A stretch of DNA of 35,061 nt from a virus (IMGVR_UViG_2654587570_000013:1-35061), one strand, 5' to 3'. Positions 3,809 to 35,061 are shown, counted from the stretch's first letter. A program made the numbers and translations. Notes: generated by a model from the letters alone, not told the origin.

Positions 3809-4066
3809 TTAATTATTGTAGTTTTGGAAACCAGTAAGATCACAAAATGAATCAGTATCATGTGCAGGAGAACGATGCTCTGCTTCGTCAGAGAAAATGT
3901 TGGCTACCGGAGATTCCACTTTAACTTCCAGTGCTTCTTCAACATCTGACTTAACTTCTTCGACCACTGGTTCAACTGCTGGAGATTCTTCTTTTGTTTC
4001 TTCAATGACGATCTCAGGTTCTTTCATTGCTTCAACCAGAGACGGATCAACTTCGTCGAATACCAC
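3809..4066 (-). CDS. putative very acidic protein (85 aa, GTG start)
   Basis: The ORF has only a GTG start and no clear SD. Its composition is low-complexity and acidic (PVVEEVKSDVEEALEVKVESPV). Coding status is uncertain. Confidence 0.35.
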   Translation of the reverse strand: MVFDEVDPSLVEAMKEPEIVIEETKEESPAVEPVVEEVKSDVEEALEVKVESPVANIFSDEAEHRSPAHDTDSFCDLTGFQNYNN

Positions 4067-4534: not shown

Positions 4535-4882
4535 TTAGATCATTTCGAAGATATAACCAATAAAGCGCATACCCTTGATATAATAAGGAGCAGTGCCTAC
4601 ACACACCGCGCGTGCATCACCCAGACAGTTAAAGCTATAAGGATTAACTACATCGACTTCTTGCCCTACACGAAAACGATATTTAGGACGTTTAGCCAAT
4701 GTAGCGACACAAAACACGGTCCCCTTTTCATGATCACGGATACATTCTTTATATTGTTTATGTTTAACTCTCTTCGCCTCAAAATCATAGGTCATAGATT
4801 CTGGGCTAATGCCATTAATAAAAATACCGGAAAGCTGATCAACCGGATAAGTAGGAAATTCAGTGAAAATATTTTTAGCCAT
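4535..4882 (-). CDS. hypothetical protein (115 aa)
   Basis: Tightly packed ORF in the late operon. No family recognised. Confidence 0.6.
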   Translation of the reverse strand: MAKNIFTEFPTYPVDQLSGIFINGISPESMTYDFEAKRVKHKQYKECIRDHEKGTVFCVATLAKRPKYRFRVGQEVDVVNPYSFNCLGDARAVCVGTAPYYIKGMRFIGYIFEMI

Positions 4883-9100: not shown

Positions 9101-9925
9101 GTTTGAATGCAAATCCATCTGGCGTACTTGTTTACGTACTTTCAGGAATGAATCAACGTTGATGTTTTCAATTGGTACGGATAAGCCATATTTTTCATTT
9201 GTTAGGTAGTGGAAAATCTGGTCCACGCCGTTAGTGCTTGCCTCAATAGCATTGGTTTCAAGGTTACGGATTTTTAAGCCCATAACATCGACCGCTACCT
9301 GGCTATTTGGTTGAAGGATATCAACACCAGCAGCCAAAGATTTGTCATCACGACGTAAAACAATACACATGGTCGCAATGCCGTTACCCTGATACCGATC
9401 ATCCCAATCAGCGCCCAAATGATGTTTAGCAAGATCTAATGCAGTGTTAGGATTTTTACCCGTGCGAAACTCGACTTCTAAAACTTTGCGGTATTCGTCT
9501 TTAATGTTTCCTTTATCGAGAATGCCATCACGAATTGTCATATTCTGGCTAATGAGAACGTTTTTATTATCGATGTGCAGTGCTTTAAAGTGATCGATCT
9601 CACCTTCGGCAATAGCAAAAATTTGTACCAGCTTGTTATTTTCACGCTGTGAAATTGCTTTGTAAACGCAGATTGCACCAGTTCGGGTAGTACCGAAAAG
9701 AACGGGTAAAACTGTCTTAGGATCGTTTGATGTTCCTAGTGTCACCGCATTATCTGGGCTTTGTACTTTCGGTGTTTTTGGTGCGCCTACAGTGGAAGCG
9801 ATCAAGGTCATTGCACCAGCAGCCATACCGATAGCGACTGCGGTCATAACAGAAAATGTTGCAGCAGCAGCCATCCCAGCAGACGCACCAGCAATAACCG
9901 CGCCTACTAATATTTCAAATCCCAT
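6179..9925 (-). CDS. tail tip / host-specificity protein, lambda J-like (1248 aa)
   Basis: Size and position after the K-like gene fit J. It has a hydrophobic gpI-like N-terminus, FN3-like middle, helical repeats (KIDQVKAELKGDI.. twice), a short A.IG.A.I repeat run and a distinct C-terminal domain. Confidence 0.85.
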   Translation of the reverse strand: MGFEILVGAVIAGASAGMAAAATFSVMTAVAIGMAAGAMTLIASTVGAPKTPKVQSPDNAVTLGTSNDPKTVLPVLFGTTRTGAICVYKAISQRENNKLVQIFAIAEGEIDHFKALHIDNKNVLISQNMTIRDGILDKGNIKDEYRKVLEVEFRTGKNPNTALDLAKHHLGADWDDRYQGNGIATMCIVLRRDDKSLAAGVDILQPNSQVAVDVMGLKIRNLETNAIEASTNGVDQIFHYLTNEKYGLSVPIENINVDSFLKVRKQVRQMDLHSNGACDPNASFKENLTSLMQTFGGVMFESFGRITLKLDAPDIVKHTFNEDNIMMGKVSLKTGGTNGYFNTINAMYQEPSIDYSEQMLRYPADAENDATIRQDGRIIAKDIEYRFVKSKAQIDKLASVERNKSRITQVISFMTTDAFTAEVWDVISVTYDELKLNNSLWRITAIDRSIDSGIAGMMTITATEYNSQVYTDLNYAANPDNRPTGLPDSMTVQKPTNFRIKATGETIHGKNVTLTWDVPEDFNRYGFQIDYKVSGSPNWIKLGQTSQQIFNINALAKDRSYDYRVCAFGIIARSEWVELVNQNPTVTYELPTPVIRIKNQGSSPGTFEGNDLIIEWENQQQLDVMINGEANKFSDLFEAYIIKVTNKAGKSIQYRTRDPESWTYTLDMNQFNGLSRELTVEVSVKGYNNSESAPARLVAINPQHKPMKGFSARGGFNTAFVSWADDVEHDYAGSIIQYATDNTFSDARAVTTNSVSHTSFDLADGDYYIRGAHYDIFGMDDAVWSEPYFMQMKSTISWDDQDKEALEDLIGLQDRLDETIADAIAQAGANADAKIDAMHKQITTETGQTVQASADTLKSLIATSEQASATKIDQVKAELKGDITKEVSASATTLKQAIATSEAASASKIDQVRVEMDGKIAGVNQEADVKIDALKGTINSKYNLAVNADGRVAGIHMSATNDPAEPTRIIFTADKIAVAPQDGSEVCPFGIEDNKVYLDNAMIRNAAIGTAQISDASITTAKIGTAQINGAHIQHAQIGTGHIIDGSIDNAKIGNYIQSYNWNGNDGWYIGKDGTCHFRHANIRGHLVADSGEMNNVTINSSCRILGMLDANQVRGDFVKVVGRSFPHRQPNWPDGAITVRVEDDHPFDRQIVIPAIHHNGSVRRGESSDHWDTCRLIVKKNGGVLYDRTATSGCMYSGVIDMPAGHGAVTMTFEVYCKGVNNYNPSAYISDLTVMVTKKAATGISVS

Positions 9926-10344
9926 TATTCACCCCCGAATCTATAAACTTGTTCATAGTCAATGTCTGAAACAGGAATGGTCATCCAGATACCATCTTCT
10001 TCAACGAGGCCATAACCGGAATAATGAGGAACTACGGAATAATATTTGCGGTTTCCTAATTTGTGGGCTGTGACCAGTAAGTCGCCGTCCTGTAAATCAT
10101 CAGTGACTAATTTGAAATGTTTCTTAATTGGTTGAAGGATATTTGTGTATCCGCTTAATTCTTTGCAGATTTTCAAGCCTTCTTCTTTAGTTGAATATTT
10201 TTTATAAAGAGAATTATATAGGTCAGTACCAGCGAGAATATCGATGATCTTACATGCAATTATATTGCAATCATTCTCGCCTTGAACGAACTCCTGACCT
10301 ATTAAAGAATTGATGTAATCGGTGATAAGCCTAGTTTTTAGCAT
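9925..10344 (-). CDS. tail tip assembly protein, NlpC/P60-like (lambda K position, 139 aa)
   Basis: GGAGG lies 8 nt upstream of ATG 10344, so the track's longer start overlaps the upstream gene. ENDCN Cys motif. TAATG overlap with the J-like start. Confidence 0.65.
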   Translation of the reverse strand: MLKTRLITDYINSLIGQEFVQGENDCNIIACKIIDILAGTDLYNSLYKKYSTKEEGLKICKELSGYTNILQPIKKHFKLVTDDLQDGDLLVTAHKLGNRKYYSVVPHYSGYGLVEEDGIWMTIPVSDIDYEQVYRFGGE

Positions 10345-10390
10345 GTTGAATACCTCCATGCAGTTATTTACTAGGCTTAGGGAGAAGGGA

Positions 10391-11044
10391 TTATTTCTTC
10401 GATGAATGCCACTTGCTTTCGCTATTCCAGCGACCCGTCCTTGAGAAGAATAGATCGTTCTCGTTTCCAACATAGGAACGGTGGATACCATCGGAAGCAT
10501 GACTACGAGCGTTTTTATCTAGAACTTCCCAGATACTATTAAGCTGAAATTCTGATTCGTTTTTACACTCTTCATCTTCATGTTCGATGTTAATACCGAT
10601 GGAATCGACTACCCCACGGAAAACAGGGTAAGTAGTTTCAACCTTGCCCGTGTTGGGGTTAAGGAAAACCATCTCGATTTTCACATCAGATTTATCGAAT
10701 TGCTTGTTACGAATCAGGGTAATGTATTCTTCGCGAACGTTAGAAACAGTTACGTTGATCCCGTTGTTGTTGATCTCCTTCTCTTCGGTATTCGATGAGA
10801 TTTGAAGAAAGTCACCCGTTGCAAGATACGTAAAACCGTTATAGTCCAAATCGAAGTACCCATCTGTAAGCCGTAGAACGTCTCCTGACGCGGTTATTAC
10901 TTCGATAATGTGAAACATCGATCCAGTGGAAAAAAGCTGCGGTAGAGTCAATCTAGACACATTCTGCCCTGTCTGGTCGTTGTAGACCTCGATGAAGTCC
11001 AGATTAGTGCATAGTTTGCTGAATGATTCCTGAATAGTTGCCAT
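10391..11044 (-). CDS. minor tail protein (lambda L position, 217 aa)
   Basis: Called from synteny (tape measure, M-position, this gene, K-like, J-like) and the TAATG overlap with the upstream gene. Confidence 0.55.
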   Translation of the reverse strand: MATIQESFSKLCTNLDFIEVYNDQTGQNVSRLTLPQLFSTGSMFHIIEVITASGDVLRLTDGYFDLDYNGFTYLATGDFLQISSNTEEKEINNNGINVTVSNVREEYITLIRNKQFDKSDVKIEMVFLNPNTGKVETTYPVFRGVVDSIGINIEHEDEECKNESEFQLNSIWEVLDKNARSHASDGIHRSYVGNENDLFFSRTGRWNSESKWHSSKK

Positions 11045-25693: not shown

Positions 25694-27601
25694 TTAGAAC
25701 GATGTTACCCAACTACGGCCTCTATTTGGAGGTCTGACGATGTTTTGACGTTGCGGTCGTGTGATTGGCTTAGTTTCTTCGATTTGCTCGTTAGATTGCG
25801 ATTTAGGAGCTTTTACGGGTTCTTCGACAACGCGGTTTAAGCTGTCTTTCATTGCAATGAGTTTATCCCATGACATTTTTGAAAGGACGTAGCGAGAAGC
25901 CGCATAGCTATAAACCAGACAGTCGAGAGCCTCGTTTCGGGTACTACCTGGATTTTTCACCCAACGCACGCCAGTAGTAGTACGCTTGATGGATTCACTC
26001 AAAAGCTGATCGAGATAATCATCAGGAACGGTTTCTGATATCTCTAAACCAATATGAGGATTGTCTTTCAGGTTTCTAACCAGCATTTCACGAACAGCAG
26101 ATTTACCAACGTTAACACCCAGCATAAGCAATTCATGACCACCTGTGCGGGTAGGTTTAACCGGAATCACTGGAGCATTACCAGATGAACTACCTTTGAT
26201 CGCGTGTAGGTTCTTCCACTTACCGCAAATACGGTATCCGGCTTGAGTGAATCGACCGTTCGATGTATCAAGGAAGCTGGCGAGCATAGGAACACGATCA
26301 CCCGATACAGTAGTAAATTTGGTTTTATGGAAGTTGATTAATCTATCCCATACAGGGGATTCATATCGTTCACAGTTATGATCGTAAAAGCTGCGGTGAT
26401 CCAGAATGTAAACCTTATCTTTCGCTACACCTAAGATGGTAGTTTCTGCGCGATCTAATTGCTGGTCAGTACCCGCACATAAGAAAATCACGTCATCAGG
26501 GATATTCTCGATAGAAACATCTGTTTTGAGTTGTTCCAGTTCATTTGCTTCTACTGCCGTGTCCTGATCGTCGTATACCTTGCCTAACACGGTGTTAAAA
26601 AAGGATTGTAAATCAAAGGATTGCCACGCATGACTAAAATCAACCACACAAGCGCGAATCGTGCTGAAAGGTGAATACAGACGACTGATCCAGAATCCTG
26701 CTACCTCACTTTCACGGGTTGCTCTCCACTCTCCTTGTGCTACTGCCCTGATTCGTTCCCCTTCTGTCCATGCGTTCTTACAGTGGGGGCAAATATAACG
26801 AGCGGTATCAGGATCGGGTAAGTTCTTACCATCAATGTTACGCCATTCAAATTGAACGTTTTCCCACTCGATCACCTGGTGTCTACCGCAATGAGGACAC
26901 GGAACAAAAAACATACGCATATCGCTTGATAACCATTGCTGGTTAATGCTTCCCAGCTTACTGGTCGGGGTACTGGATACGACTAATCGACCTTCATCGC
27001 CAAAGGTAGTTAAACGGTTAGCAGCCAGTGCCACCGGATCACCTTCTTCTGAGGCTGTGGCAGCATCAATTTCGTCAAGTAATCCAACCTTTGCGGTCTT
27101 ACCACGTAGGGTTGATGGGCTGGTAAGCGATACCATGTACAGGAAGTGATTCGTTTTTAACTGGAGTTGGTTGTTGTTGTTAACCGCGTTGCGATCATTC
27201 TTGTCTGTAACCACGTCTTTCAATGCATCACATGCTTCGATAGACGGTCGGATCTTACCCGCGAGATATTGAGACATTTCTTTAGCGGTTGATTGTCCGA
27301 TAATCATATTGCATGGATCGTTAGCCATCTGGTTAAACAGGATACCGTTTAGGATGGTAGTTTTTCCGATCTGCGCACTGGTCATCAGTACATACTTTTT
27401 CTTATTCTCAAGGAAAGGAGCATCAATCATGCCTTTCTGGAATGACAGCAATTTAACTTTATCCCCCGCTTGAGGACCATCTACCAGCACCATATTCGCT
27501 TCGCACCATTCAGACGGAAGGAGCTTAGGCGGTGGAGTGATATATTTTGCGGCATTTTTAAGAATCTTTTTTAATTTTGCCTTATTAGAAATCAGTTTCA
27601 T
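25694..27601 (-). CDS. terL: terminase large subunit, lambda GpA-type (635 aa)
   Basis: Walker [10 protein letters not shown] and Walker B GLLDEID. The paired Cys motifs CPHCGRHQ...[10 protein letters not shown] are typical of GpA-family terminases. The size (635 aa) fits lambda gpA. Confidence 0.9.
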
Positions 27602-27644
27602 GTAATTACCCTCATTACGAAATATGAAGGTATTTATTAAATTA

Positions 27645-27672
27645 TTGATATTTTGATAAATACGGGTATTAA
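27645..27672 (+). promoter_or_regulatory. candidate sigma70 promoter for the rightward 198-aa gene
   Basis: TTGATA-N16-TATTAA, about 17 nt upstream of the AAGGAGG RBS. Confidence 0.4.
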
Positions 27673-27688
27673 GATTTAAGGAGGGTGT

Positions 27689-28285
27689 ATGCTAATTAAT
27701 CAGCAAGAAAGAGATGAATTAGCCTTGTCTTGTACCGATCATGAATATCGTTTACCCGTTAAGCATAAGCATTTAAAAACCGATTACACAACATCTGGGT
27801 TTAGCCGTGAGGAAGCGAAAGAGATTTTAATAGAATTTTACCGTGATAATGGCTATAGAGACGTTCATAACTTCTTTAAGAAGCATCGCACATCACAGAC
27901 AGAGTTTCAGCGAGTCCGTGAGTGGTTTGATTTTGATATCAAGCGTTATTATCGCATTGATGACGGTCCTATCTATCGGTTGCAGTGGAAGCCGATCAGG
28001 GAAGTGTTGAAACAGAAGAGATTGAATCACGCAATTACACGCTATCGTAACGAGGCTTTCAAGAAAGGCTATGGTGATACAAGGGAACTATTCGTTGAAC
28101 TCGCTAACGTGAAGTACAGCCACTATTACAACGATCCTAAAGGGTTCTTTGAAGTGCTTCGCAAGGTTGATATAAGTCGGGGTACATATTATTCACGGTT
28201 GAAGAAGTACGGGATTAAGGCAGAGTTCTTTATGTCGGTTGACGATGGAGAACTTTTTCCGATAAAATGTAAGTCCTCTAAATAA
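27689..28285 (+). CDS. tandem-HTH-module protein (198 aa)
   Basis: AAGGAGG RBS. It contains two copies of the module also found singly in the 77-aa and 59-aa proteins (FYRDNGY..FFKK...FQRVREWF and [27 protein letters not shown]). Confidence 0.6.
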
Positions 28286-28314
28286 AGGTGAACATTCACT
28301 TTAATTTGGAGAAA

Positions 28315-28548
28315 ATGACTATGACTACTAAAGCTACTCGCGGTCGCCCTACCCGTTTTAATCGTGAACAGATGGCTGATATTGCCTACGCTTACTATAC
28401 AGCGGATCGTGGTAAGGAAGCGAAAGAACAGATTCTTAGTGAACATGGGATCTCAATCGCCCAATTCTATAAGAATATGAAGAAGTTAGACATTAAATTC
28501 TATGTTCAGATCGGTGATGGTCAGATCGTAGAAGCAACAGGTTTTTGA
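28315..28548 (+). CDS. small HTH DNA-binding protein (77 aa; alternative start 28321)
   Basis: ATRGRPTRFNREQMADIAYAYY...GISIAQFYKNMKKLDIK is paralogous to the 31655..31834 product. The GGAG position favours ATG 28321. Confidence 0.6.
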   Translation: MTMTTKATRGRPTRFNREQMADIAYAYYTADRGKEAKEQILSEHGISIAQFYKNMKKLDIKFYVQIGDGQIVEATGF

Positions 28549-28556
28549 TTCTCTTT

Positions 28557-28580
28557 GCCACTCTTCGGAGTGGCTTTTTT
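28557..28580 (+). terminator. intrinsic terminator
   Basis: GCCACTC-TTCG-GAGTGGC followed by TTTTTT. Confidence 0.75.
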
Positions 28581-28626
28581 GTATGTAAAACAATCGGCGC
28601 AAAACTGCGCTCATCTCTAAGTTGAG

Positions 28627-28666
28627 TCCAAATCTGGACTGATCTATAGATGCATCCAAATCTGGA
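28627..28666. repeat. 40-bp quasi-palindromic site: TCCAAATCTGGA - ctg - ATCTATAGAT - gca - TCCAAATCTGGA
   Basis: Two identical 12-mers (28627-28638 and 28655-28666) flank a perfect 10-bp palindrome (28642-28651). The site lies in the gap between convergent terminators. Confidence 0.6.
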
Positions 28667-28700
28667 GGGATGTGCTTAACTTTCAGCGCATCTACAGATA

Positions 28701-28726
28701 CAAAAAAGCCCCTGAAATTCAGGGGC
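28701..28726 (-). terminator. intrinsic terminator after the Rha-like gene
   Basis: Minus strand reads GCCCCTGAA-T-TTCAGGGGC followed by TTTTTTG. Confidence 0.7.
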
Positions 28727-28734
28727 AAAAATTA

Positions 28735-29577
28735 TTACAGTCCGAAGGCTTCCAGAGTTCCGATATTCTTACGAATCAGTGCAGCCGTATTGTTGATAAT
28801 TGCACGAGCATTGTTTGGCTGCGGTAATTTCAAAGTTGCTACCGTCTCTTCCTCAATCAAGCCCAATTTAACCAGCACTGGTAAACAGTCAGTTGTGAAC
28901 TCAAGCTGACCATGTGCTGATTGTCGAGCGTACATGTAAGCAGGAGGAAGAACATCATAGCCGTTAGGCTTACCAGAAGCATCCAGACGACGCTCAATGT
29001 GTTTAGCCTCACATAATCCCTTAAGAATACGTTGTACCTTCGTAGAGCCTCGTTTTTCGCCTAATAAGCGGGTGAGACTGTGTGCGTCAATGGCACGTCT
29101 GATGTGGAGATCAACTAAACGTTTATTTTCGCGGGTTTTCTCTAATGCCAGTTCGATCCAATCGGTTTCTTCAAAGTGTTCATATGGATTAACCGGAACA
29201 TTAGCTTTACCTTCTTTCATCAAACGCCATTCTTTAGCAATTTTGAAGCGAAGCGGTGCATCGTATCCCATAACCAGAGTATTACAGAGATCTTCATCCA
29301 GTTCATACATCGGTTTATTACGATTCAGAGAATCTTTATAAGTCGTTTCTTTATAAAAACCGATGGGCGCAAAATTGCGCTCATCTCCTCCGACCAGTTT
29401 GCTACCCTTTTCAAGCGAATCAACCATATTACGAAAATCACGCATAACATCTTTATGATTCTTTCCGGTTAATTCCGCGATCTGCAAAGTAGACATGGTC
29501 AGCGGTTTGGTGTTATCAACAACCAGAGACACGGAAGCAGGTTTAATAGCAGTATTCATAGTAGTAACAGTATTCAT
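28735..29577 (-). CDS. rha: Rha-family phage regulatory protein / antirepressor-like (280 aa)
   Basis: LTMSTLQIAELTGKNHKDVMRDFRNMVDSL matches the conserved Rha N-terminal motif as I remember it. AAGGGGG RBS. Confidence 0.75.
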   Translation of the reverse strand: MNTVTTMNTAIKPASVSLVVDNTKPLTMSTLQIAELTGKNHKDVMRDFRNMVDSLEKGSKLVGGDERNFAPIGFYKETTYKDSLNRNKPMYELDEDLCNTLVMGYDAPLRFKIAKEWRLMKEGKANVPVNPYEHFEETDWIELALEKTRENKRLVDLHIRRAIDAHSLTRLLGEKRGSTKVQRILKGLCEAKHIERRLDASGKPNGYDVLPPAYMYARQSAHGQLEFTTDCLPVLVKLGLIEEETVATLKLPQPNNARAIINNTAALIRKNIGTLEAFGL

Positions 29578-29666
29578 AGTAAAATCCCCCTTAAACGGTT
29601 TAGTGATGATCCTCCTAGTTCCGGCATCACTACCGGAACAATTTTATTTATAAAGAAATTTTTATC

Positions 29667-29813
29667 TCATTTAGATTCAGCAATCGCGCGATCAATTTCT
29701 TCTTGAATGCGACGCTGGCGTTCATGGAAGTCAACCATTGAGAAATTCAGGTTTGGGGTCCACGGTTTGCGGTTCGGGTTTTTACGTCCATCAATTTTCT
29801 TAGTAGTGTTCAT
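29667..29813 (-). CDS. small basic protein (48 aa)
   Basis: Hand-read ORF with an AAGAGGA RBS 8 nt upstream. Sequence MNTTKKIDGRKNPNRKPWTPNLNFSMVDFHERQRRIQEEIDRAIAESK. It is the first gene after the 29872-29900 promoter. Confidence 0.45.
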   Translation of the reverse strand: MNTTKKIDGRKNPNRKPWTPNLNFSMVDFHERQRRIQEEIDRAIAESK

Positions 29814-29871
29814 AATTAACATCCTCTTTACAAATCTAGGTCAAATAGGTTCAAAGTTGTCAAGTGCGATA

Positions 29872-29900
29872 ATCATAAAAAAGTTAGAAAATTTTGTCAA
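29872..29900 (-). promoter_or_regulatory. strong sigma70-type promoter (leftward)
   Basis: Minus strand reads TTGACA (29900-29895), a 17-nt spacer, then TATGAT (29877-29872). Confidence 0.6.
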
Positions 29901-29935
29901 TGCCCCTTGACAAGCCACCAAAGGGTTGACCTAAC

Positions 29936-30394
29936 TTACAGCATATCTAAGCCTTCATCATGGCCGTAGAAGCCACCGTGAGAAGAGAAACAGATTGGTG
30001 CGTAGTCGTCGTCATCTTCGTCTTGTTCATCTTGTTCTGGGGCTTCCTGAGCGGGTTGTTTGCCGTAATCAGCCATAATCTGGTCAAGATCAGCGATCCC
30101 ATAGTAAGAGCCTAAATCAACGTCATATTCACGAACATCAAACGGCAGGTCATCACGAACAATAATTGCTGGAATATCGTTGTATTGAAGACGACCTTCA
30201 TCAGTAAGACAGTCGATGATCACAGTAGGACGACCATTTCGTTTTAAAGCGTAGAAAGCAGTTGAGTAGTTGGAGTCTTCGGAATGACGAATGATGTTAT
30301 AACCACGATTAGCGAAAACTTCTAGCATATGGAAGTTACCATAGTTTTCAGAGTCCAGACCCAGAAGTACGAAAGGAGTTTTAGTATTGATCAT
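29936..30394 (-). CDS. hypothetical early protein with acidic C-terminal tract (152 aa from ATG 30394)
   Basis: AGAGGA RBS before MINTKTPF. The N-terminal alpha/beta-like domain is followed by EAPEQDEQDEDDDDY. It is the first gene leftward of the ORF-free control region. Confidence 0.6.
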   Translation of the reverse strand: MINTKTPFVLLGLDSENYGNFHMLEVFANRGYNIIRHSEDSNYSTAFYALKRNGRPTVIIDCLTDEGRLQYNDIPAIIVRDDLPFDVREYDVDLGSYYGIADLDQIMADYGKQPAQEAPEQDEQDEDDDDYAPICFSSHGGFYGHDEGLDML

Positions 30395-30593
30395 AGTGGT
30401 ATCCTCTAAAAGAAAGTGAATCAAACAAATTACACTAGTATTTATACGAGAAAAAAATATCTATTTGGAAGTGATTGGATTCAGTCGGCTTCGCCTCCTT
30501 CATGATTTTGATTAAATCATCATCAAAACGAAGGAGTATCTTTAGAATATAAGAATCTTTCTTTTGGAGAAATAATAATCAGGAAGCAATTTG

Positions 30594-30837
30594 GCAACCG
30601 AAGGTTGCAATCCCGAAGGGATACCAATACCTTTCTAGAAAGTGATTGTTACTCACTTCGTTCGTTTACTAGAATCAGTTAGTAACTAGCATTAAATCCC
30701 TTTCTAAGAAAATCCTTTCAAAAGTGAGTGAACGCCGTAGGCGTGAACGTGAGCGAAGCGAACTATCCAATCCCTTTCGAATCCTGCTTGCAGGTCTTAG
30801 AAGGTGTTGATGGGCGCTTCGCGCACGGCTACGCCGT
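30594..30837. repeat. field of GC-clamped mini-hairpins with 3-nt loops
   Basis: GCAACC-GAA-GGTTGC (30594-30608), ATCCC-GAA-GGGAT (30610-30622), ACGCC-GTA-GGCGT (30732-30744), GC-GAA-GC (30753-30759), GCGC-TTC-GCGC (30814-30824) and ACGGC-TAC-GCCGT (30825-30837). A perfect palindrome CTTTCTAGAAAG sits at 30631-30642. Confidence 0.7.
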
Positions 30838-30967
30838 ATTCTTTTTGCGAGATCTTTCTTGAACGTAGTGAGAGAAAACGAGCAAAAAGGAGAACGTTAG
30901 TTCGAATTTTATATTCTATGGTCTGTGGGGTGAAATGTTTTTCAAGATCATACACTTATGAGATTGA

Positions 30968-31092
30968 AGTGTAGGGTTAGTGTAGGTGTGTAGGTTTCAT
31001 AGTGTAGGTTTGAGGGTGTTATAGTGTAGGTTTACTGGCTAGTGTAGTGTAGGCCAATCCCTTTAAAGTGTAGGTTTGTAGTGTAGGGTTTT
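30968..31092 (+). repeat. iteron array: 8 direct copies of (A)GTGTAGG(TTT)
   Basis: GTGTAGG starts at 30969, 30980, 30988, 31002, 31024, 31047, 31068 and 31081, all in the same orientation. Three copies are exactly AGTGTAGGTTT. Confidence 0.85.
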
Positions 31093-31093
31093 C

Positions 31094-31110
31094 ATCAAAA
31101 ATTTTGATAG
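31094..31110. repeat. AT-rich palindrome ATCAAAAATTTTGAT; 15-mer CAAAAATTTTGATAG repeated at 31245-31259
   Basis: The 15-nt palindrome is perfect. The identical 15-mer occurs at 31096-31110 and 31245-31259. Confidence 0.7.
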
Positions 31111-31195
31111 AAAATTCTTGTATATTATTTAATCAGAAAATCACCAAAAATCGCGGTAACTGCATGATTTAAAAGGAATGGTCAAAAGGTCACCG

Positions 31196-31204
31196 TGCTA
31201 TAAT
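31196..31204 (+). promoter_or_regulatory. candidate extended -10 promoter (TGcTATAAT)
   Basis: TGCTATAAT is a perfect extended -10 element. No good -35 is present. Confidence 0.4.
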
Positions 31205-31284
31205 AGGTTATAAAGGTTGATAATCGTTATCCGCCATTTTCACACAAAAATTTTGATAGTCTTTTCTCGTTTAGGTCAAGTGTA

Positions 31285-31313
31285 TTGACAACTGTCAAGG
31301 ATTATTTTATACT
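31285..31313 (+). promoter_or_regulatory. strong sigma70-type promoter (rightward)
   Basis: TTGACA (31285-31290), a 17-nt spacer, then TATACT (31308-31313). Confidence 0.65.
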
Positions 31314-31447
31314 TTTTATCGCTGGTGGGGGTTGAAATTTTCTAAACAGCCCCCATATAGATGATAAGCAAGATTTTTCGTGTATAAATACATGCATGAA
31401 ATGATTGTTCACTTCTGAAAATCCCCTGATTCACTGTTAACACATAC

Positions 31448-31475
31448 AGCACTGGTTAAACACACAGTGCTTTTT
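31448..31475 (+). terminator. intrinsic terminator inside the rightward leader
   Basis: AGCACTG / 10-nt loop / CAGTGCT followed by TTTT, about 155 nt downstream of the predicted start. Confidence 0.65.
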
Positions 31476-31533
31476 CGATTAAATAATGTACGAAATGATT
31501 AATTATTAATCTTCTCTTTAGCAATTCGTGCTC

Positions 31534-31559
31534 CCACTGATCGGATATACAGTGGTTTT
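31534..31559 (+). terminator. second hairpin with U-tract in the leader
   Basis: CCACTG / 10-nt loop / CAGTGG followed by TTTT. It has the same CACTG...CAGTG design as the first. Confidence 0.45.
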
Positions 31560-31654
31560 ACAGGGTTTTCTGAAATGACTTTTATAAATAGAAGTATCGA
31601 GGGCGAAAAGCTCTTTTTATTGTCCTTATTAATCCACATTTGAGGAATCTACTT

Positions 31655-31834
31655 ATGGCTAGACCTGTTAAGTTTACTCGTGAAATGATTGTTGATATTG
31701 CTAAACGCTTTTATGGCGATACTGAACGAGGCGGCGAGAATTTCTTTAAGAAGGAAGGAATTGATAGAAGCGGATTCTATAAGTTAATGAAGAAATACGA
31801 AATTCAGATAAAGATTAACGTTCAAGTTTGTTAA
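31655..31834 (+). CDS. small HTH DNA-binding protein (59 aa)
   Basis: GAGGA RBS 8 nt before ATG 31655. MARPVKFTREMIVDIAKRFY...GIDRSGFYKLMKKYEIQ is paralogous to the 28315..28548 product. Confidence 0.6.
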   Translation: MARPVKFTREMIVDIAKRFYGDTERGGENFFKKEGIDRSGFYKLMKKYEIQIKINVQVC

Positions 31835-31950
31835 TCCACTTTCACTGAGAATTATATGATGGCTTTAAAAATAAAAAGCCTCCCTTGTTGCAGCAAAGGA
31901 GGCTTGAAATGAACAATTAAAACTAACACAGCATTCAGGAGTATTTATAA

Positions 31951-32946
31951 ATGAAAAATTCTAAGCGCATCACCTTCAACCTGTTTATTAAATCCAACGG
32001 CAAACTGAACATTACCGTCATGGAAGGTAAAGCAAGCAAACAAGACAAATCCTTTGAAGTAGTATCCGGTAAGACTCTGACCGAAATGCGTCAGAATGCT
32101 GGCATCAAAGACGGTGCTGAATGGCAGATCACTAACCGTTTCGACAAACGTCACGTTAAACCTACACTGGTAGAAGGTGAATCCGTTTATTGCTTCGCTC
32201 GTGCTGTTAAAGCCGATGAAACTTACTATCTCGCTGTTGTTAAAACTGCTTCCGGCTTCCGTGCTGTAATGCATCACAAGAGCAAGCGTAACGAATACGG
32301 CGTAGAGACCCAGGAAGTCGCAAAACGCTTCCGTACTGTTGCTACCGAATCCACTGTAAAGGATGTTTCTGGTACTGTTAACACCGCTAAAGGCGGTTCC
32401 TTCTACAACCACGCATTACAGGTTACTTCCTCCTTCTTCTGCAAAAAAGAAGCACAGAAAGAAGTTTCTCCGGTAGTAGTTGAAGAAGTTAAAGAAGAAG
32501 TTGCAGTGGTTGAATCTTCCGAAGTTGAAGCACTGAAAGCACGCATTGCTGAACTGGAAGCTGAAAACGCATCTCTGAAAGCTGAACTGGCAGCACAGGA
32601 AACCACTTTCGAAGTAGCAGCGGTTGAAGTTGAAGCAGTTGAAGAAAAATCCATTGATGAAGAACTGGAAGAACTCCTTAACTATCGCTGGGGTGTTGTT
32701 GCAGAAGTAGAACAAGAAGTTGCTCCGGTAGTTGTTCCGGTTGAAGTTGAAAAAGAATCCGCACCTGTTACTAACTTTGAATCCCTGCGCAATAACTTTA
32801 TGGCTAAATTCAAAACCACTTGGGAAGATACCGAAGAAGAACAAGAAGAGATTGAAGTAAACGAAGACGAGATCCGCGAAGCACAGATGGCACTGCATGA
32901 CGCTATCTACGACACCAACTACAGCGCCTACGCATACGCAGCTTAA
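31951..32946 (+). CDS. abundant-type acidic coiled-coil protein of unknown function (331 aa)
   Basis: AGGAG RBS. A basic N-terminal ~170 aa domain is followed by a coiled coil (ALKARIAELEAENASLKAELAAQE) and acidic V/E-rich repeats. Extreme codon optimisation leaves a single TTA/CTA/TCA-type codon (the TTA at 32416) across 31951-32946, keeping the antisense frame open. Confidence 0.75.
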   Translation: MKNSKRITFNLFIKSNGKLNITVMEGKASKQDKSFEVVSGKTLTEMRQNAGIKDGAEWQITNRFDKRHVKPTLVEGESVYCFARAVKADETYYLAVVKTASGFRAVMHHKSKRNEYGVETQEVAKRFRTVATESTVKDVSGTVNTAKGGSFYNHALQVTSSFFCKKEAQKEVSPVVVEEVKEEVAVVESSEVEALKARIAELEAENASLKAELAAQETTFEVAAVEVEAVEEKSIDEELEELLNYRWGVVAEVEQEVAPVVVPVEVEKESAPVTNFESLRNNFMAKFKTTWEDTEEEQEEIEVNEDEIREAQMALHDAIYDTNYSAYAYAA

Positions 32947-32961
32947 TAGAGGGGTGAATCT

Positions 32962-33204
32962 ATGATGAATCAAAACAAAGAATTTCTGGGTAATCTGATG
33001 TTAGAAATTACCAAAATGAAAGAAAGAATGGTAGCGATGGAATCAGAGATTAAAACTCTTAAAGCTGATAATAAGGCGTTGAGAAAGTCCTTAAAGCTGA
33101 TTGATGAGACTAATGCGGTTATGATGGATCATGTATTCCCTGAGTGGCGAAATGAAACTAAACCTACACAACATAAGAAACTTACACTTCGAATTGTTGC
33201 ATAA
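32962..33204 (+). CDS. small coiled-coil protein (80 aa)
   Basis: GAGGGG RBS. Heptad-rich MKERMVAMESEIKTLKADNKALRKSLKL. Confidence 0.6.
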   Translation: MMNQNKEFLGNLMLEITKMKERMVAMESEIKTLKADNKALRKSLKLIDETNAVMMDHVFPEWRNETKPTQHKKLTLRIVA

Positions 33205-33228
33205 AAAAAAGGGACTCCGAAGAGTCCC
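33203..33228 (-). terminator. intrinsic terminator (leftward)
   Basis: Minus strand reads GGGACTC-TTCG-GAGTCCC followed by TTTTTTTT. Confidence 0.7.
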
Positions 33229-33303
33229 TAGTAAGTTTAGGTTAGGTTTGCACAACAAAGATGAGGTTATAATGAACATAATGCTACATTATTCTTTAAA
33301 GCC

Positions 33304-33330
33304 AGAAAAATAACCGCCCCGAAGGGGCGG
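33304..33330 (-). terminator. intrinsic terminator (leftward)
   Basis: Minus strand reads CCGCCCC-TTC-GGGGCGG followed by TTATTTTT. Confidence 0.6.
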
Positions 33331-33479
33331 GAGGATTAATACTCAATCTATACTTGTTATGTTTTTGTGTTGTATGGATCACTGACTATGAAAACACTGT
33401 TTTTATGGCTTTTAATCGGGAACTCTCTTTCGAAAATTCCCTGTTAAAACCACATAAGGAGAAAAGGCAGATTACAATA

Positions 33480-33653
33480 TTATTTAGTGTCTGATTTATA
33501 GCAACTAAAAAGAATAAACAGGATTAAACATACCCAGCCGTAAGGCGTACCGATTAGAAATTTGAAAAACACCACCAGCGATATAAAAATCAATTTAATG
33601 CCAGCGACGATAGTCAAAAACAGCAGAGTAGCAAAGTAGACAAAAAGATCCAT
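33480..33653 (-). CDS. small multi-TM membrane protein, holin-like (57 aa)
   Basis: Hand-read ORF with an AGAGGA RBS. It has two or three hydrophobic segments and a charged C-terminus KSDTK. Confidence 0.45.
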   Translation of the reverse strand: MDLFVYFATLLFLTIVAGIKLIFISLVVFFKFLIGTPYGWVCLILFILFSCYKSDTK

Positions 33654-33706
33654 AGATAATCCTCTTTGAAAACGACCATCATCTATAGTTCAATTCATCG
33701 ATTTAA

Positions 33707-33808
33707 TTAATGATACTTGAAAGCATTACACACAGCAGAAATGCCAATGTGAGCAAATGAATATACGATAGTTAATCCTACAGCCAGATAAATCAAAAAT
33801 TCAACCAT
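33707..33808 (-). CDS. small single-TM peptide (33 aa)
   Basis: Hand-read ORF with a GAGGA RBS 7 nt upstream. Sequence MVEFLIYLAVGLTIVYSFAHIGISAVCNAFKYH. Confidence 0.35.
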   Translation of the reverse strand: MVEFLIYLAVGLTIVYSFAHIGISAVCNAFKYH

Positions 33809-33904
33809 AGGTAAATCCTCAAATAAGAAAAAGGTTAGCGGGGGATGTTCTCCCCCGTAGACGTTGACCATCAACATCTTTCATACATTTATTTATAACG
33901 CGTT

Positions 33905-34456
33905 TTAAGACACATCAAATTCATCGTCTTCTTCTGGTTCTTGTTCCGGTTCATCCATTAATGGTAATTCTTCTTCCTCGTCTTCTCCTAAATCCGCATT
34001 TTCGAACAAGTCCCCTACTTCATTTAAACGACGCTCGATGATCTCCCTTAGCTTATTCTTCAATGTTTTCTGGTCGGTGGCAGATTCAAGAATTTCTAAA
34101 GCGTCGATTGTGGCGATCTGCAAAATAGTCTGTTTCACCTTCCCGCAATATTCCGCTAGTTCCTGCTCAACATACCCGACCGGAATCAGGAGGTTCATTG
34201 CTTCCTGGTTCTCTCGTTCGGCTGCATCTGCTAATGCTCTCTCACGGCGTAATTTCTCTACGTCGATTTGTTCCTTGACAGTAGTTTCCCTGAGTGGACT
34301 GATGATATTTTTTGCTACCCACTCGGTCCCCTCTTTGAGTGGCACGCGGCGGGTATTGGTATTGTAAGGTAGTCCCCTTTCTAACCATTTCTTAGCGGCG
34401 TTAATTGTATAGCCGTATAAGCGGGAAATTTCTGTAAGGGTTAATTCTTCTTTCAT
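33905..34456 (-). CDS. terS: terminase small subunit, lambda Nu1-like (183 aa)
   Basis: AAGGAGG RBS. The N-terminal winged-HTH LTLTEISRLYGYTINAAKKWLERGLP and the VEKLRRE...ADAAERE helix resemble Nu1 as I remember it. The C-terminal tail is acidic. Confidence 0.6.
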   Translation of the reverse strand: MKEELTLTEISRLYGYTINAAKKWLERGLPYNTNTRRVPLKEGTEWVAKNIISPLRETTVKEQIDVEKLRRERALADAAERENQEAMNLLIPVGYVEQELAEYCGKVKQTILQIATIDALEILESATDQKTLKNKLREIIERRLNEVGDLFENADLGEDEEEELPLMDEPEQEPEEDDEFDVS

Positions 34457-34755
34457 CCGGTTATCCTCCTTTAAATTTGCGTAAAATTATTTATCTGATC
34501 TGCGCATTCAGGAGAGCGCCTAAAACGCTTTATAACGAAGGGAAAGATCGAGGCATGGAAAGGGATTGGCGTGTGTTAATAGTCGCGTAGCGACCGCGCT
34601 GGTGGGCTGCACTGCACCTGTTTTGAAATCTCACACGCACATCAAATACCGGGGTGCCGAAAACTCCCTTTATTTCACCCGTGGAACAGTACCTTTTGAT
34701 TTTGTCAAGTCTTTTTTATAAATAATCGAAAATATTTTTCACACGAGGGCAAATC

Positions 34756-35061
34756 ATGAAGACTAAAGATATTAAGATTGAATTTGAAACTGTTGATGAC
34801 GTTCGGGAACATCGCATTGATTCTACTGGCTGCATCTTCCAGCTTACTAACTCCCCTATTGGATTGATTATCTATGTAGCAGAAGATGACGTGTACGCTA
34901 TATGGGATGGACAGGATGAGTTTAAAGGCGGGAATAGCCATCTGATCAATACTCATGAGGGATTTGATCCGACTCCTGTCTGTATGCTTGCTTATCACGT
35001 AACACTGGATGAACTACCGGAAGCAAGCGCGCGTATCCGTAGAATGAAAGACATTAAGTGA
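34756..35061 (+). CDS. hypothetical protein (101 aa)
   Basis: GAGGG RBS 6 nt upstream. The ORF ends exactly at the window edge. It is preferred over the overlapping minus-strand ORF 34705..34998, which lacks an RBS. Confidence 0.55.
   Translation: MKTKDIKIEFETVDDVREHRIDSTGCIFQLTNSPIGLIIYVAEDDVYAIWDGQDEFKGGNSHLINTHEGFDPTPVCMLAYHVTLDELPEASARIRRMKDIK

Follow-up and report, generated by a model that had tools for sequence, protein, structure and literature searches.

The single-stranded DNA (ssDNA)-binding proteins T7 gp2.5, T4 gp32 and E. coli SSB are oligomeric proteins of early or middle expression in which a beta-rich basic domain is followed by an acidic, aromatic-containing C-terminal tail; lambda O is a two-part protein with a flexible linker, encoded in an early rightward operon behind a small helix-turn-helix (HTH) gene and associated with origin iterons; and scaffold and decoration proteins (T7 gp9, P22 gp8, lambda gpD and the phi29 head fibre gp8.5) are marked by very high codon adaptation and acidic coiled coils. 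Here we compare with these systems gene X (31951..32946, + strand), which encodes a protein of 331 amino acids (aa) in the viral sequence IMGVR_UViG_2654587570_000013:1-35061, a stretch of 35,061 nucleotides that we analysed whole and call the window. We directly establish the gene, the selection acting on it, the bias of its codons, the layout of domains and charge in its product, and the operon and neighbours that surround it. Tentatively, with a probability of about 0.3, we read X as a protein that a temperate siphophage makes early and abundantly, that binds nucleic acid in the service of replication or recombination, and that ClpXP clears; our hypothesis is that it represents a new kind among the bipartite DNA-binding proteins which phages make early and in large amounts.

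X is the most codon-adapted gene of its prophage. Its codon adaptation index (CAI) by the E. coli table of Sharp and Li is 0.698, the highest among the 37 open reading frames (ORFs) of the window; tail tube (0.613) and capsid-protease fusion (0.509) complete the prophage's top three, and the genes immediately flanking X score 0.22 and 0.24. An empirical table was made as an independent check from 30 ribosomal-protein and elongation-factor genes of the str, S10, spc and alpha operons of one E. coli genome; by this table the value for X is 0.754 and the median of the reference genes 0.677, which places X approximately 8th of the 30. The codon bias of X is extreme and lies at the level of ribosomal proteins. 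A preliminary description of the window had claimed capsid-level codon optimisation for X and had named an ordinary score against highly expressed host genes as the result that would count against it; because the adaptation of X is at ribosomal-protein level, that comparison fails to refute the claim. The bias is equal in both halves of the gene and is retained in homologues (CAI 0.58-0.76), and the 29 chromosomal genes flanking the prophage in strain DEC5A range from 0.22 to 0.42 with a median of 0.28. The second codon of X is AAA, and a strong Shine-Dalgarno sequence, AGGAG, can be read 9 nt 5' of its ATG (31937..31941, + strand). Codon usage, Shine-Dalgarno sequence and promoter (below) together point to very high abundance; as codon adaptation is so strong, X is probably the most heavily made product of its prophage family.

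Calibration against two well-studied phages suggests what such a value may mean. The CAI of X exceeds that of every lambda and T7 gene. The lambda maximum is 0.449, for the capsid gene E, with D (0.428) and bet (0.394) ranking second and third; O (0.27), cI (0.26) and the lysogeny genes rexAB, sieB, lom and bor (0.15-0.33) are low. In T7 the highest values are 0.573 for the SSB gp2.5, 0.543 for the capsid, 0.494 for ocr and 0.454 for the scaffold, so that gp2.5, a non-structural protein, has, like X, a CAI above that of the capsid. In this calibration, the only non-structural genes at or above capsid level encode ssDNA-binding or annealing proteins and Ocr. Because ssDNA-binding and annealing proteins score high, whereas initiators, repressors and lysogeny genes score low, we favour a role for X in coating or organising DNA.

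The extreme codon bias also explains why X has almost no stop codons in its codon-aligned antisense frame. As first described, this frame is broken exactly once, by the single sense codon TTA at 32416 (Leu156; 32416..32418, + strand); the other two antisense frames hold 12 and 26 stops. From the combined usage of TTA, CTA and TCA in the other 31 genes of the window (3.66% of codons), 12.1 stops would be expected (binomial P(<=1) = 6e-5), or 8.9 given the 15 Leu and 21 Ser of X itself (P = 4e-4). AGA, AGG, CGA, CGG, ATA, GGA, GGG, CCC, CTA and TCA are wholly unused in X. The homologue in locus L004 has 6 stops in the corresponding frame, and TTA sits at a different codon in the X homologues of other lineages. 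On this comparison the position of the single TTA is incidental, and we rejected the idea of a conserved TTA. Two antisense ORFs within X (155 and 185 aa) were likewise rejected as genes, their open frames being unconserved; since neither the antisense ORF nor the TTA position is conserved, the open frame is a by-product of codon choice and not a gene. The same signature had been claimed for the major tube and capsid genes: it holds for the tube gene, with 0 codon-aligned antisense stops, and is weak for the capsid gene, with 10 in 670 codons. A 115-aa ORF (4535-4882, - strand) has zero codon-aligned antisense stops yet an ordinary CAI (0.37), so the antisense-open signature alone is an unreliable proxy of codon adaptation.

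The protein joins two halves of opposite charge. Residues 1-170 (31951..32460, + strand) form a basic N-terminal domain (isoelectric point (pI) 9.8, net charge +13), predicted to be beta-rich, that is the conserved core of the family; many of its 56 invariant positions are occupied by Arg, Lys, Phe, Tyr or Trp. Residues 171-331 have a pI of 4.05 and a net charge of -33. In the AlphaFold2 model of full-length X, the N-terminal domain is followed by disorder, a helix at residues 190-231, disorder again and then C-terminal helices. The long helix (32518..32643, + strand), which is the best-scored part of the model, corresponds to a leucine-zipper-like coiled coil with L-x6-L heptads (LKARIAE/LEAENAS/LKAELAA). 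An acidic V/E/P-rich linker at residues 232-275 (32644..32775, + strand) is predicted to be disordered, with a predicted local-distance difference test score (pLDDT) below 50, and the C-terminal helical region spans residues 276-331 (32776..32943, + strand). This layout bears out the earlier account of a basic domain of ~170 aa, a zipper-like coiled coil and acidic V/E/P-rich repeats. The same account had likened the acidic repeats to the scaffold linker of the capsid fusion and to an 85-aa ORF; homology was not demonstrable and was rejected in both cases, as the likeness is compositional only (BLASTP E = 0.74 and 0.017, respectively). That 85-aa ORF (3809-4066, - strand) is acidic and V/E/P-rich, has a CAI of 0.49 and adjoins the lysis genes.

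X thus carries an acidic tail after a putative DNA-binding domain, as do the SSB-type proteins, although the tail is weaker in the Salmonella homologue P0123, in which the net charge of the C-terminal half is -12. The linker is hypervariable among E. coli strains, with insertions and deletions that leave the 127 full-length homologues at 326-339 aa; the minor-allele fraction is 0.13 for residues 251-275 versus 0.006 for the N-terminal domain. X differs from T7 gp2.5 and SSB in having no sequence similarity to them, a predicted fold that, in a mediocre model, shows no match to OB folds, a zipper in mid-protein, a long disordered linker and an Ala-Ala end instead of an acidic-aromatic tip. We favour the DNA-coating reading because X shows this architecture of basic domain and acidic tail, because it lies beside a putative origin, and because no other replication, SSB, recombinase or repressor gene was recognisable anywhere in the ~35 kb of the prophage.

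The C-terminus of X, ...NYSAYAYAA, ends in two alanines (codons 32938-32943) that are kept in 125 of the 127 full-length homologues. Across the deepest split of the family (35-38% full-length identity), 5 of the last 60 positions are invariant, and the terminal Ala-Ala accounts for two of these. A C-terminal Ala-Ala with a free carboxylate is the main determinant of recognition by ClpXP, and related Ala-Ala degrons send natural proteins to this protease (PMC7652416); the sequence of X provides such an end. It matches the ssrA tag, AANDENYALAA, at 4/5 final positions (YAYAA vs YALAA), and the Salmonella homologues, which end in VRAA or RRAA, keep the Ala-Ala. Unlike the ssrA tag, however, X does not have the SspB-binding part, and its C-terminus could be buried in a complex. 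As ORFs ending in AA arise by chance at a rate of few percent (~1-4% in the DNA examined), the degron argument rests on conservation.

Gene order and regulatory signals suggest that X belongs to an early-type operon. As the preliminary description stated, X is a minority-strand gene that does not belong to the structural operon. Its operon would be transcribed from a near-consensus sigma-70 promoter, TTGACA-17-TATACT (11/12 match; 31285..31313, + strand), whose -35 element is enclosed by a perfect palindrome, TTGACAACTGTCAA (31285-31298), a putative operator that has no other perfect copy within the window; promoter and palindrome are present in all four lineages. X was also said to lie behind a gated leader, and conserved hairpins are indeed found there. 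Just 5' of the first gene lies a hairpin with a T-run (AGAGC-GAAA-GCTCT-TTTTT; 31599..31623, + strand), a candidate weak terminator or attenuator that could act as the gate; its 5-bp stem and T-run are invariant in the four lineages. The first gene encodes a 59-aa HTH-like protein (31655..31834, + strand; the conserved start is ATG 31655, and the automatic ORF call starts at TTG 31640) with 45-85% identity to its homologues in L003-L005. Between this gene and X, a strongly conserved 12-15-bp hairpin (31876..31905), which all four lineages share and in which L003 shows one compensatory pair, reads on the minus strand as an intrinsic terminator (12 pairs and a T-run); on the plus strand, where the U-tract is missing, it may serve to stabilise the X mRNA at its 5' end or to direct its processing. 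The third gene, Y (32962..33204, + strand), encodes an 80-aa coiled-coil protein that may be a zipper partner of X; it is homologous to a 74-aa protein of L005 (11040-11264) and to the C-terminal part of a 286-aa protein of L003 (11070-11930), so that Y-type proteins vary from 74 to 286 aa, but keep the coiled coil and a C-terminal PTLR(V/I/L)V(A/G). Two minus-strand intrinsic terminators 3' of the operon (33229-33210 and 33330-33314) would end the convergent unit of a TerS-like gene and insulate the X operon from antisense transcription. The order HTH-X-Y is kept around all three divergent homologues.

Approximately 0.9 kb upstream of X lies an array of 8-9 direct copies of the iteron (A)GTGTAGG(G/T)TT with ~11/22-bp phasing (30969..31090, + strand), found at the same place in all four lineages. 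Iteron matches in the window number 17 versus 2.5 expected, and 7 of them cluster at 30969..31090; L005 and the E. coli type share the core AGTGTAGG, and the Salmonella types have AGTGCAGG. The array is probably a phage origin or a multi-site protein-binding array or operator, and iterons adjoining the gene are what is expected of an initiator, X being a putative binder. Exact reverse-orientation copies inside X and Y (32158-32167 and 33160-33169, - strand) are absent from the homologous loci and so are probably there by chance. On the combined evidence of synteny, iterons, operator-bearing promoter and hairpins, the X operon appears to be early-type and probably repressor-controlled, beside an origin-like region. 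In the AT-rich stretch 3' of the iterons there are two copies of a palindrome, CAAAAATTTTGATAG, at 31096 and 31245.

From these features we infer that X is made early, binds nucleic acid and is turned over by ClpXP, and we propose the following course of events. On induction or infection, the repressor-controlled sigma-70 promoter beside the origin-like iterons would fire and transcribe the HTH gene, X and Y, and X would be translated with the efficiency of a ribosomal protein. The basic, aromatic-rich beta domain would then bind nucleic acid stoichiometrically, the substrate being phage DNA, or ssDNA intermediates of replication or recombination near the origin or spreading from it. The leucine zipper would oligomerise X and possibly also pair it with Y; the acidic disordered tail may, like those of T7 gp2.5, T4 gp32 and E. 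coli SSB, moderate DNA binding and recruit partners; and the exposed Ala-Ala C-terminus would let ClpXP clear free X.

The X family is taxonomically very narrow in the sequence collections that we searched. We find an identical copy of the protein on 248 E. coli contigs; among the 120 matches listed of 202, all come from E. coli or Shigella, share at least 94% identity and are named in their sources always as hypothetical or by a generic domain label. Of the 5,426 complete E. coli genomes searched, 64 (about 1%) carry the X locus. An exhaustive phmmer search with the N-terminal domain against 1.84 billion cluster representatives returned three true 50%-identity clusters and two fragments, two further matches being repeat-protein artefacts. 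Beyond the cluster of X itself, these are P0121 (77% identity) and P0123 (46%); P0127, from Salmonella Muenchen, which was obtained in a word-indexed search with the Salmonella homologue, groups with P0123. The ratio of nonsynonymous to synonymous substitution rates (dN/dS) of the N-terminal domain versus L005 is 0.17 and, as judged by sequence comparison, the gene is real and under purifying selection. X had no tblastn match among 50,697 phage records or in 72,556 plasmids, megablast against the phage records was likewise negative, and no literature was found on the protein or its prophage when sought by accession and integration site.

That X belongs to no recognisable family, as was noted at the outset, is upheld by library and fold searches: Pfam, PHROGs, NCBIfam, PADLOC and PDB sequences, compared with X, its N-terminal profile and its homologues, gave only sub-threshold coiled-coil noise (bZIP and coiled-coil matches only in the Pfam-type search). 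No Redbeta/RecT, Erf, Sak or Rad52 profile or fold match was found for X. AlphaFold2, which had been suggested as a check, predicts a beta-rich N-terminal domain with two helices, but the model is mediocre (pLDDT 66.7; predicted template modelling score, pTM, 0.66) and matches no fold, so we leave the fold unplaced; by sequence and predicted fold, the X family is unplaced. Several of these results weigh against a nucleic-acid-binding role. Only 1/5 of the N-terminal models exceeds pLDDT 50, and residues 1-170 have no profile match in Pfam, PHROGs, NCBIfam or PDB, including none to the SSB/gp2.5 family in the first three. In hhalign comparisons of the N-terminal profile with 39 lambda and T7 proteins, among them gp2.5, Bet, O, Gam and Ocr, the probability was at most 0.5%; neither its sequence nor its mediocre model links X to an SSB, annealing or other DNA-binding family. 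SSBs do not typically have a coiled coil in mid-protein, codon bias gauges abundance only indirectly, expression timing is deduced from promoter logic, and the chance rate of AA endings given above tempers the ClpXP argument.

Other functions would account for part of the same evidence. X could be a virion or morphogenetic protein made in capsid-like amounts, a decoration or head-fibre protein or an external scaffold encoded off the structural operon. The top-CAI genes of lambda encode capsid E and decoration protein D, the T7 scaffold gene is high too, and X stands with tube and capsid at the top of its own prophage; scaffolds are typically acidic coiled coils, and X has a sub-threshold match to PF06810 (Phage_scaffold; E = 0.024); a beta base domain, a coiled-coil stalk and an acidic exposed tail would suit a head fibre, and the hypervariable, indel-rich acidic segment could be surface-exposed. 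However, the PF06810 match (15 bits) is far under the 35-bit cut-off and covers only the coiled coil (residues 177-224), and X lies on the opposite strand, ~8 kb from the head genes, in an early regulatory region with a sigma-70 promoter, an operator-like palindrome and an adjacent HTH gene. The capsid of this prophage is already fused to a protease and an acidic scaffold-like linker; no motif is common to the upstream regions of X and of the late genes; and an exposed ClpXP-type terminus would be odd for a structural protein. We regard a virion role as rather unlikely. A role as replication initiator like lambda O, in which the N-terminal domain binds the iterons, the C-terminal half recruits host replication proteins and ClpXP keeps the protein short-lived, draws on the helically phased iteron array just upstream and on the position of X, which is that of O in a lambda-like early-right operon, with a small HTH gene before it. 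Moreover, lambda O is a classic ClpXP substrate, as X may be; the iteron core differs (T vs C) between groups whose N-terminal domains are 43-46% identical and is the same at 77%; and no other initiator is recognisable in the prophage. Yet initiators are low-abundance proteins with ordinary codon usage, as the 0.27 of lambda O illustrates, and a value of 0.70 is hard to reconcile with this. The iterons of O are intragenic; the copies inside X and Y are unconserved; hhalign finds no relation to O; no winged-helix or Rep-like signal was found in X by profile, hhalign or fold searches, the predicted N-terminal domain being mainly beta; and the four copies of the HTH module, above all the two-repeat 198-aa protein described below, are equally good candidates for iteron binding. 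Because the codon bias of X is so high, we think this role unlikely.

The acidic half has suggested yet another function, namely an early anti-defence or host-takeover factor whose dimeric C-terminal half mimics DNA, in the manner of Ocr or ArdA, or titrates a host DNA-binding protein. A net charge of -33 with a dimerising zipper, a strong sigma-70 early promoter and the near-capsid CAI of T7 ocr agree with this proposal, which the preliminary description had raised together with a possible replication-compartment component and a possible external scaffold. It is weakened by the homologues: the acidity is not conserved, falling to -12 in P0123, and resides in a hypervariable stretch that is predicted to be disordered; conservation and selection instead mark the basic N-terminal domain. 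X matches no Ocr or ArdA profile and no anti-defence or defence model, the hhalign comparison with T7 0.3 is negative, and PADLOC defence models match neither X nor its two operon partners nor the early genes that neighbour them. As the acidity is unconserved, we consider DNA mimicry quite unlikely. Finally, X may be a moron expressed from the resident prophage for superinfection exclusion, defence or host fitness, its codon usage reflecting constant expression in the lysogen. It lies ~3 kb from the attR end, as judged from the DEC5A record L001 (attR itself is beyond the window), on the opposite strand, bracketed by hairpins and terminators and with an LprI-like accessory gene nearby. Against this, the operon, its promoter-operator and the iterons belong to the core and keep their places in every lineage, down to 43% identity, unlike what a mobile moron would show; the PADLOC search is negative, all lysogeny-expressed genes of lambda have a low CAI, and the palindrome over the -35 element suggests that the operon is repressed in the lysogen. 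Because of the core synteny and the operator, we think a moron improbable.

The surroundings of X contain further unusual elements. The early region, which is placed between the large terminase and the distant TerS-like gene, reads in order 198-aa gene (+), 86-aa gene (+), Rha-family gene (-), 51-aa gene (-), 162-aa gene (-), a gene-free stretch of ~1.2 kb, and HTH-X-Y (+); this order recurs around all three divergent homologues. The 59-aa HTH protein is paralogous to the 86-aa ORF (28288-28548; E = 5e-9) and to two repeats of the 198-aa ORF (27689-28285); a module of ~55 aa, RP.KF.RE...DIA..FY...FFKK.GI....FYK.MKKY.I, occurs in four copies, once each in the 59-aa and 86-aa proteins and twice in the 198-aa ORF (BLASTP E = 5e-9 to 1e-3), and matches no Pfam or PHROG family. 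Proteins with this module are candidate binders of the iterons or the operator. The acidic-tailed 162-aa protein (29936-30424, - strand) has an alpha/beta N-terminal domain, a run of Asp and Glu, and a C-terminus of conserved sequence (...DDDDYAP(I/V)xFSSxG...DML); its CAI of 0.45 is the second highest of the early region (homologues 0.46-0.55), its gene has zero antisense stops in two homologues, and it matches no family. Two outward-facing near-consensus sigma-70 promoters (11/12 each; 29872-29912 and 31285-31313), with TTGACAA/TTGTCAA inverted repeats, bracket the 162-aa gene and the iterons, a layout that resembles a lambda-like immunity region without a recognisable repressor. At 30590-30840 there are short GC-rich tetraloop hairpins, e.g. 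GCAACC-GAAG-GTTGC, CGCC-GTAG-GCG and GGTGTTGATGGGCGC-TTCG-GCGCACGGCTACGCC; two blocks of this cluster are conserved in all four lineages and their flanks diverge. These hairpins could be a structured non-coding RNA or a single-strand initiation signal of the origin; Rfam gave no match in 27000-35061.

Essentially the whole window is a single prophage of ~35 kb, inserted by a large serine recombinase into the antitoxin gene hicB; the matching prophage of DEC5A lies at NZ_CP038394.1 2722774-2758065. The minus-strand genes of the window specify that recombinase, a lysis module, a siphovirus tail, a capsid fused to an S78 protease, a portal of lambda type and a large terminase of gpA type (25694-27601, - strand). 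The nearest isolated phage is distant, with a best capsid match of 44%. Relatives of the large terminase in GTDB, sought for positional analogues of X, share 27-31% identity, or 45% in one match over ~44 residues on a 484-bp contig, and come from unrelated phyla, so that they gave no useful analogue; the corresponding search of IMG/VR returned the same E. coli prophage only. The TerS-like gene (33905-34456, - strand; phrog_57, E = 1e-14) lies ~6.3 kb from the large terminase gene with the whole early region between them, an unusual arrangement, and is followed by two small membrane-protein ORFs (33480-33877). The tail module of DEC5A holds a NUMOD3 homing-endonuclease-like gene (L001 1-306; NZ_CP038394.1 2732739-2733512), at the corresponding place of which the window has a 191-aa ORF (9925-10500).

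X may also be the founder of a family with a new fold, a ClpXP-gated "protease-queueing" organiser that is made at ribosomal-protein levels, coats or organises phage DNA at the iteron origin and also saturates ClpXP. We hold this idea to be highly improbable; if it were true, other ClpXP substrates, be they phage or host proteins or the antitoxins of abortive-infection systems, would be transiently stabilised in the window of the lysis-lysogeny decision or of induction. The ssrA-like terminus makes the link between X and ClpXP directly testable. The prophage family is widespread in E. coli, Shigella and Salmonella, and is unstudied; once solved, the fold of X would reveal something new, be it a class of DNA-coating or replication proteins, a virion component or a strategy of host manipulation, and the function of X would help to explain how a phage family without recognisable replication genes replicates.

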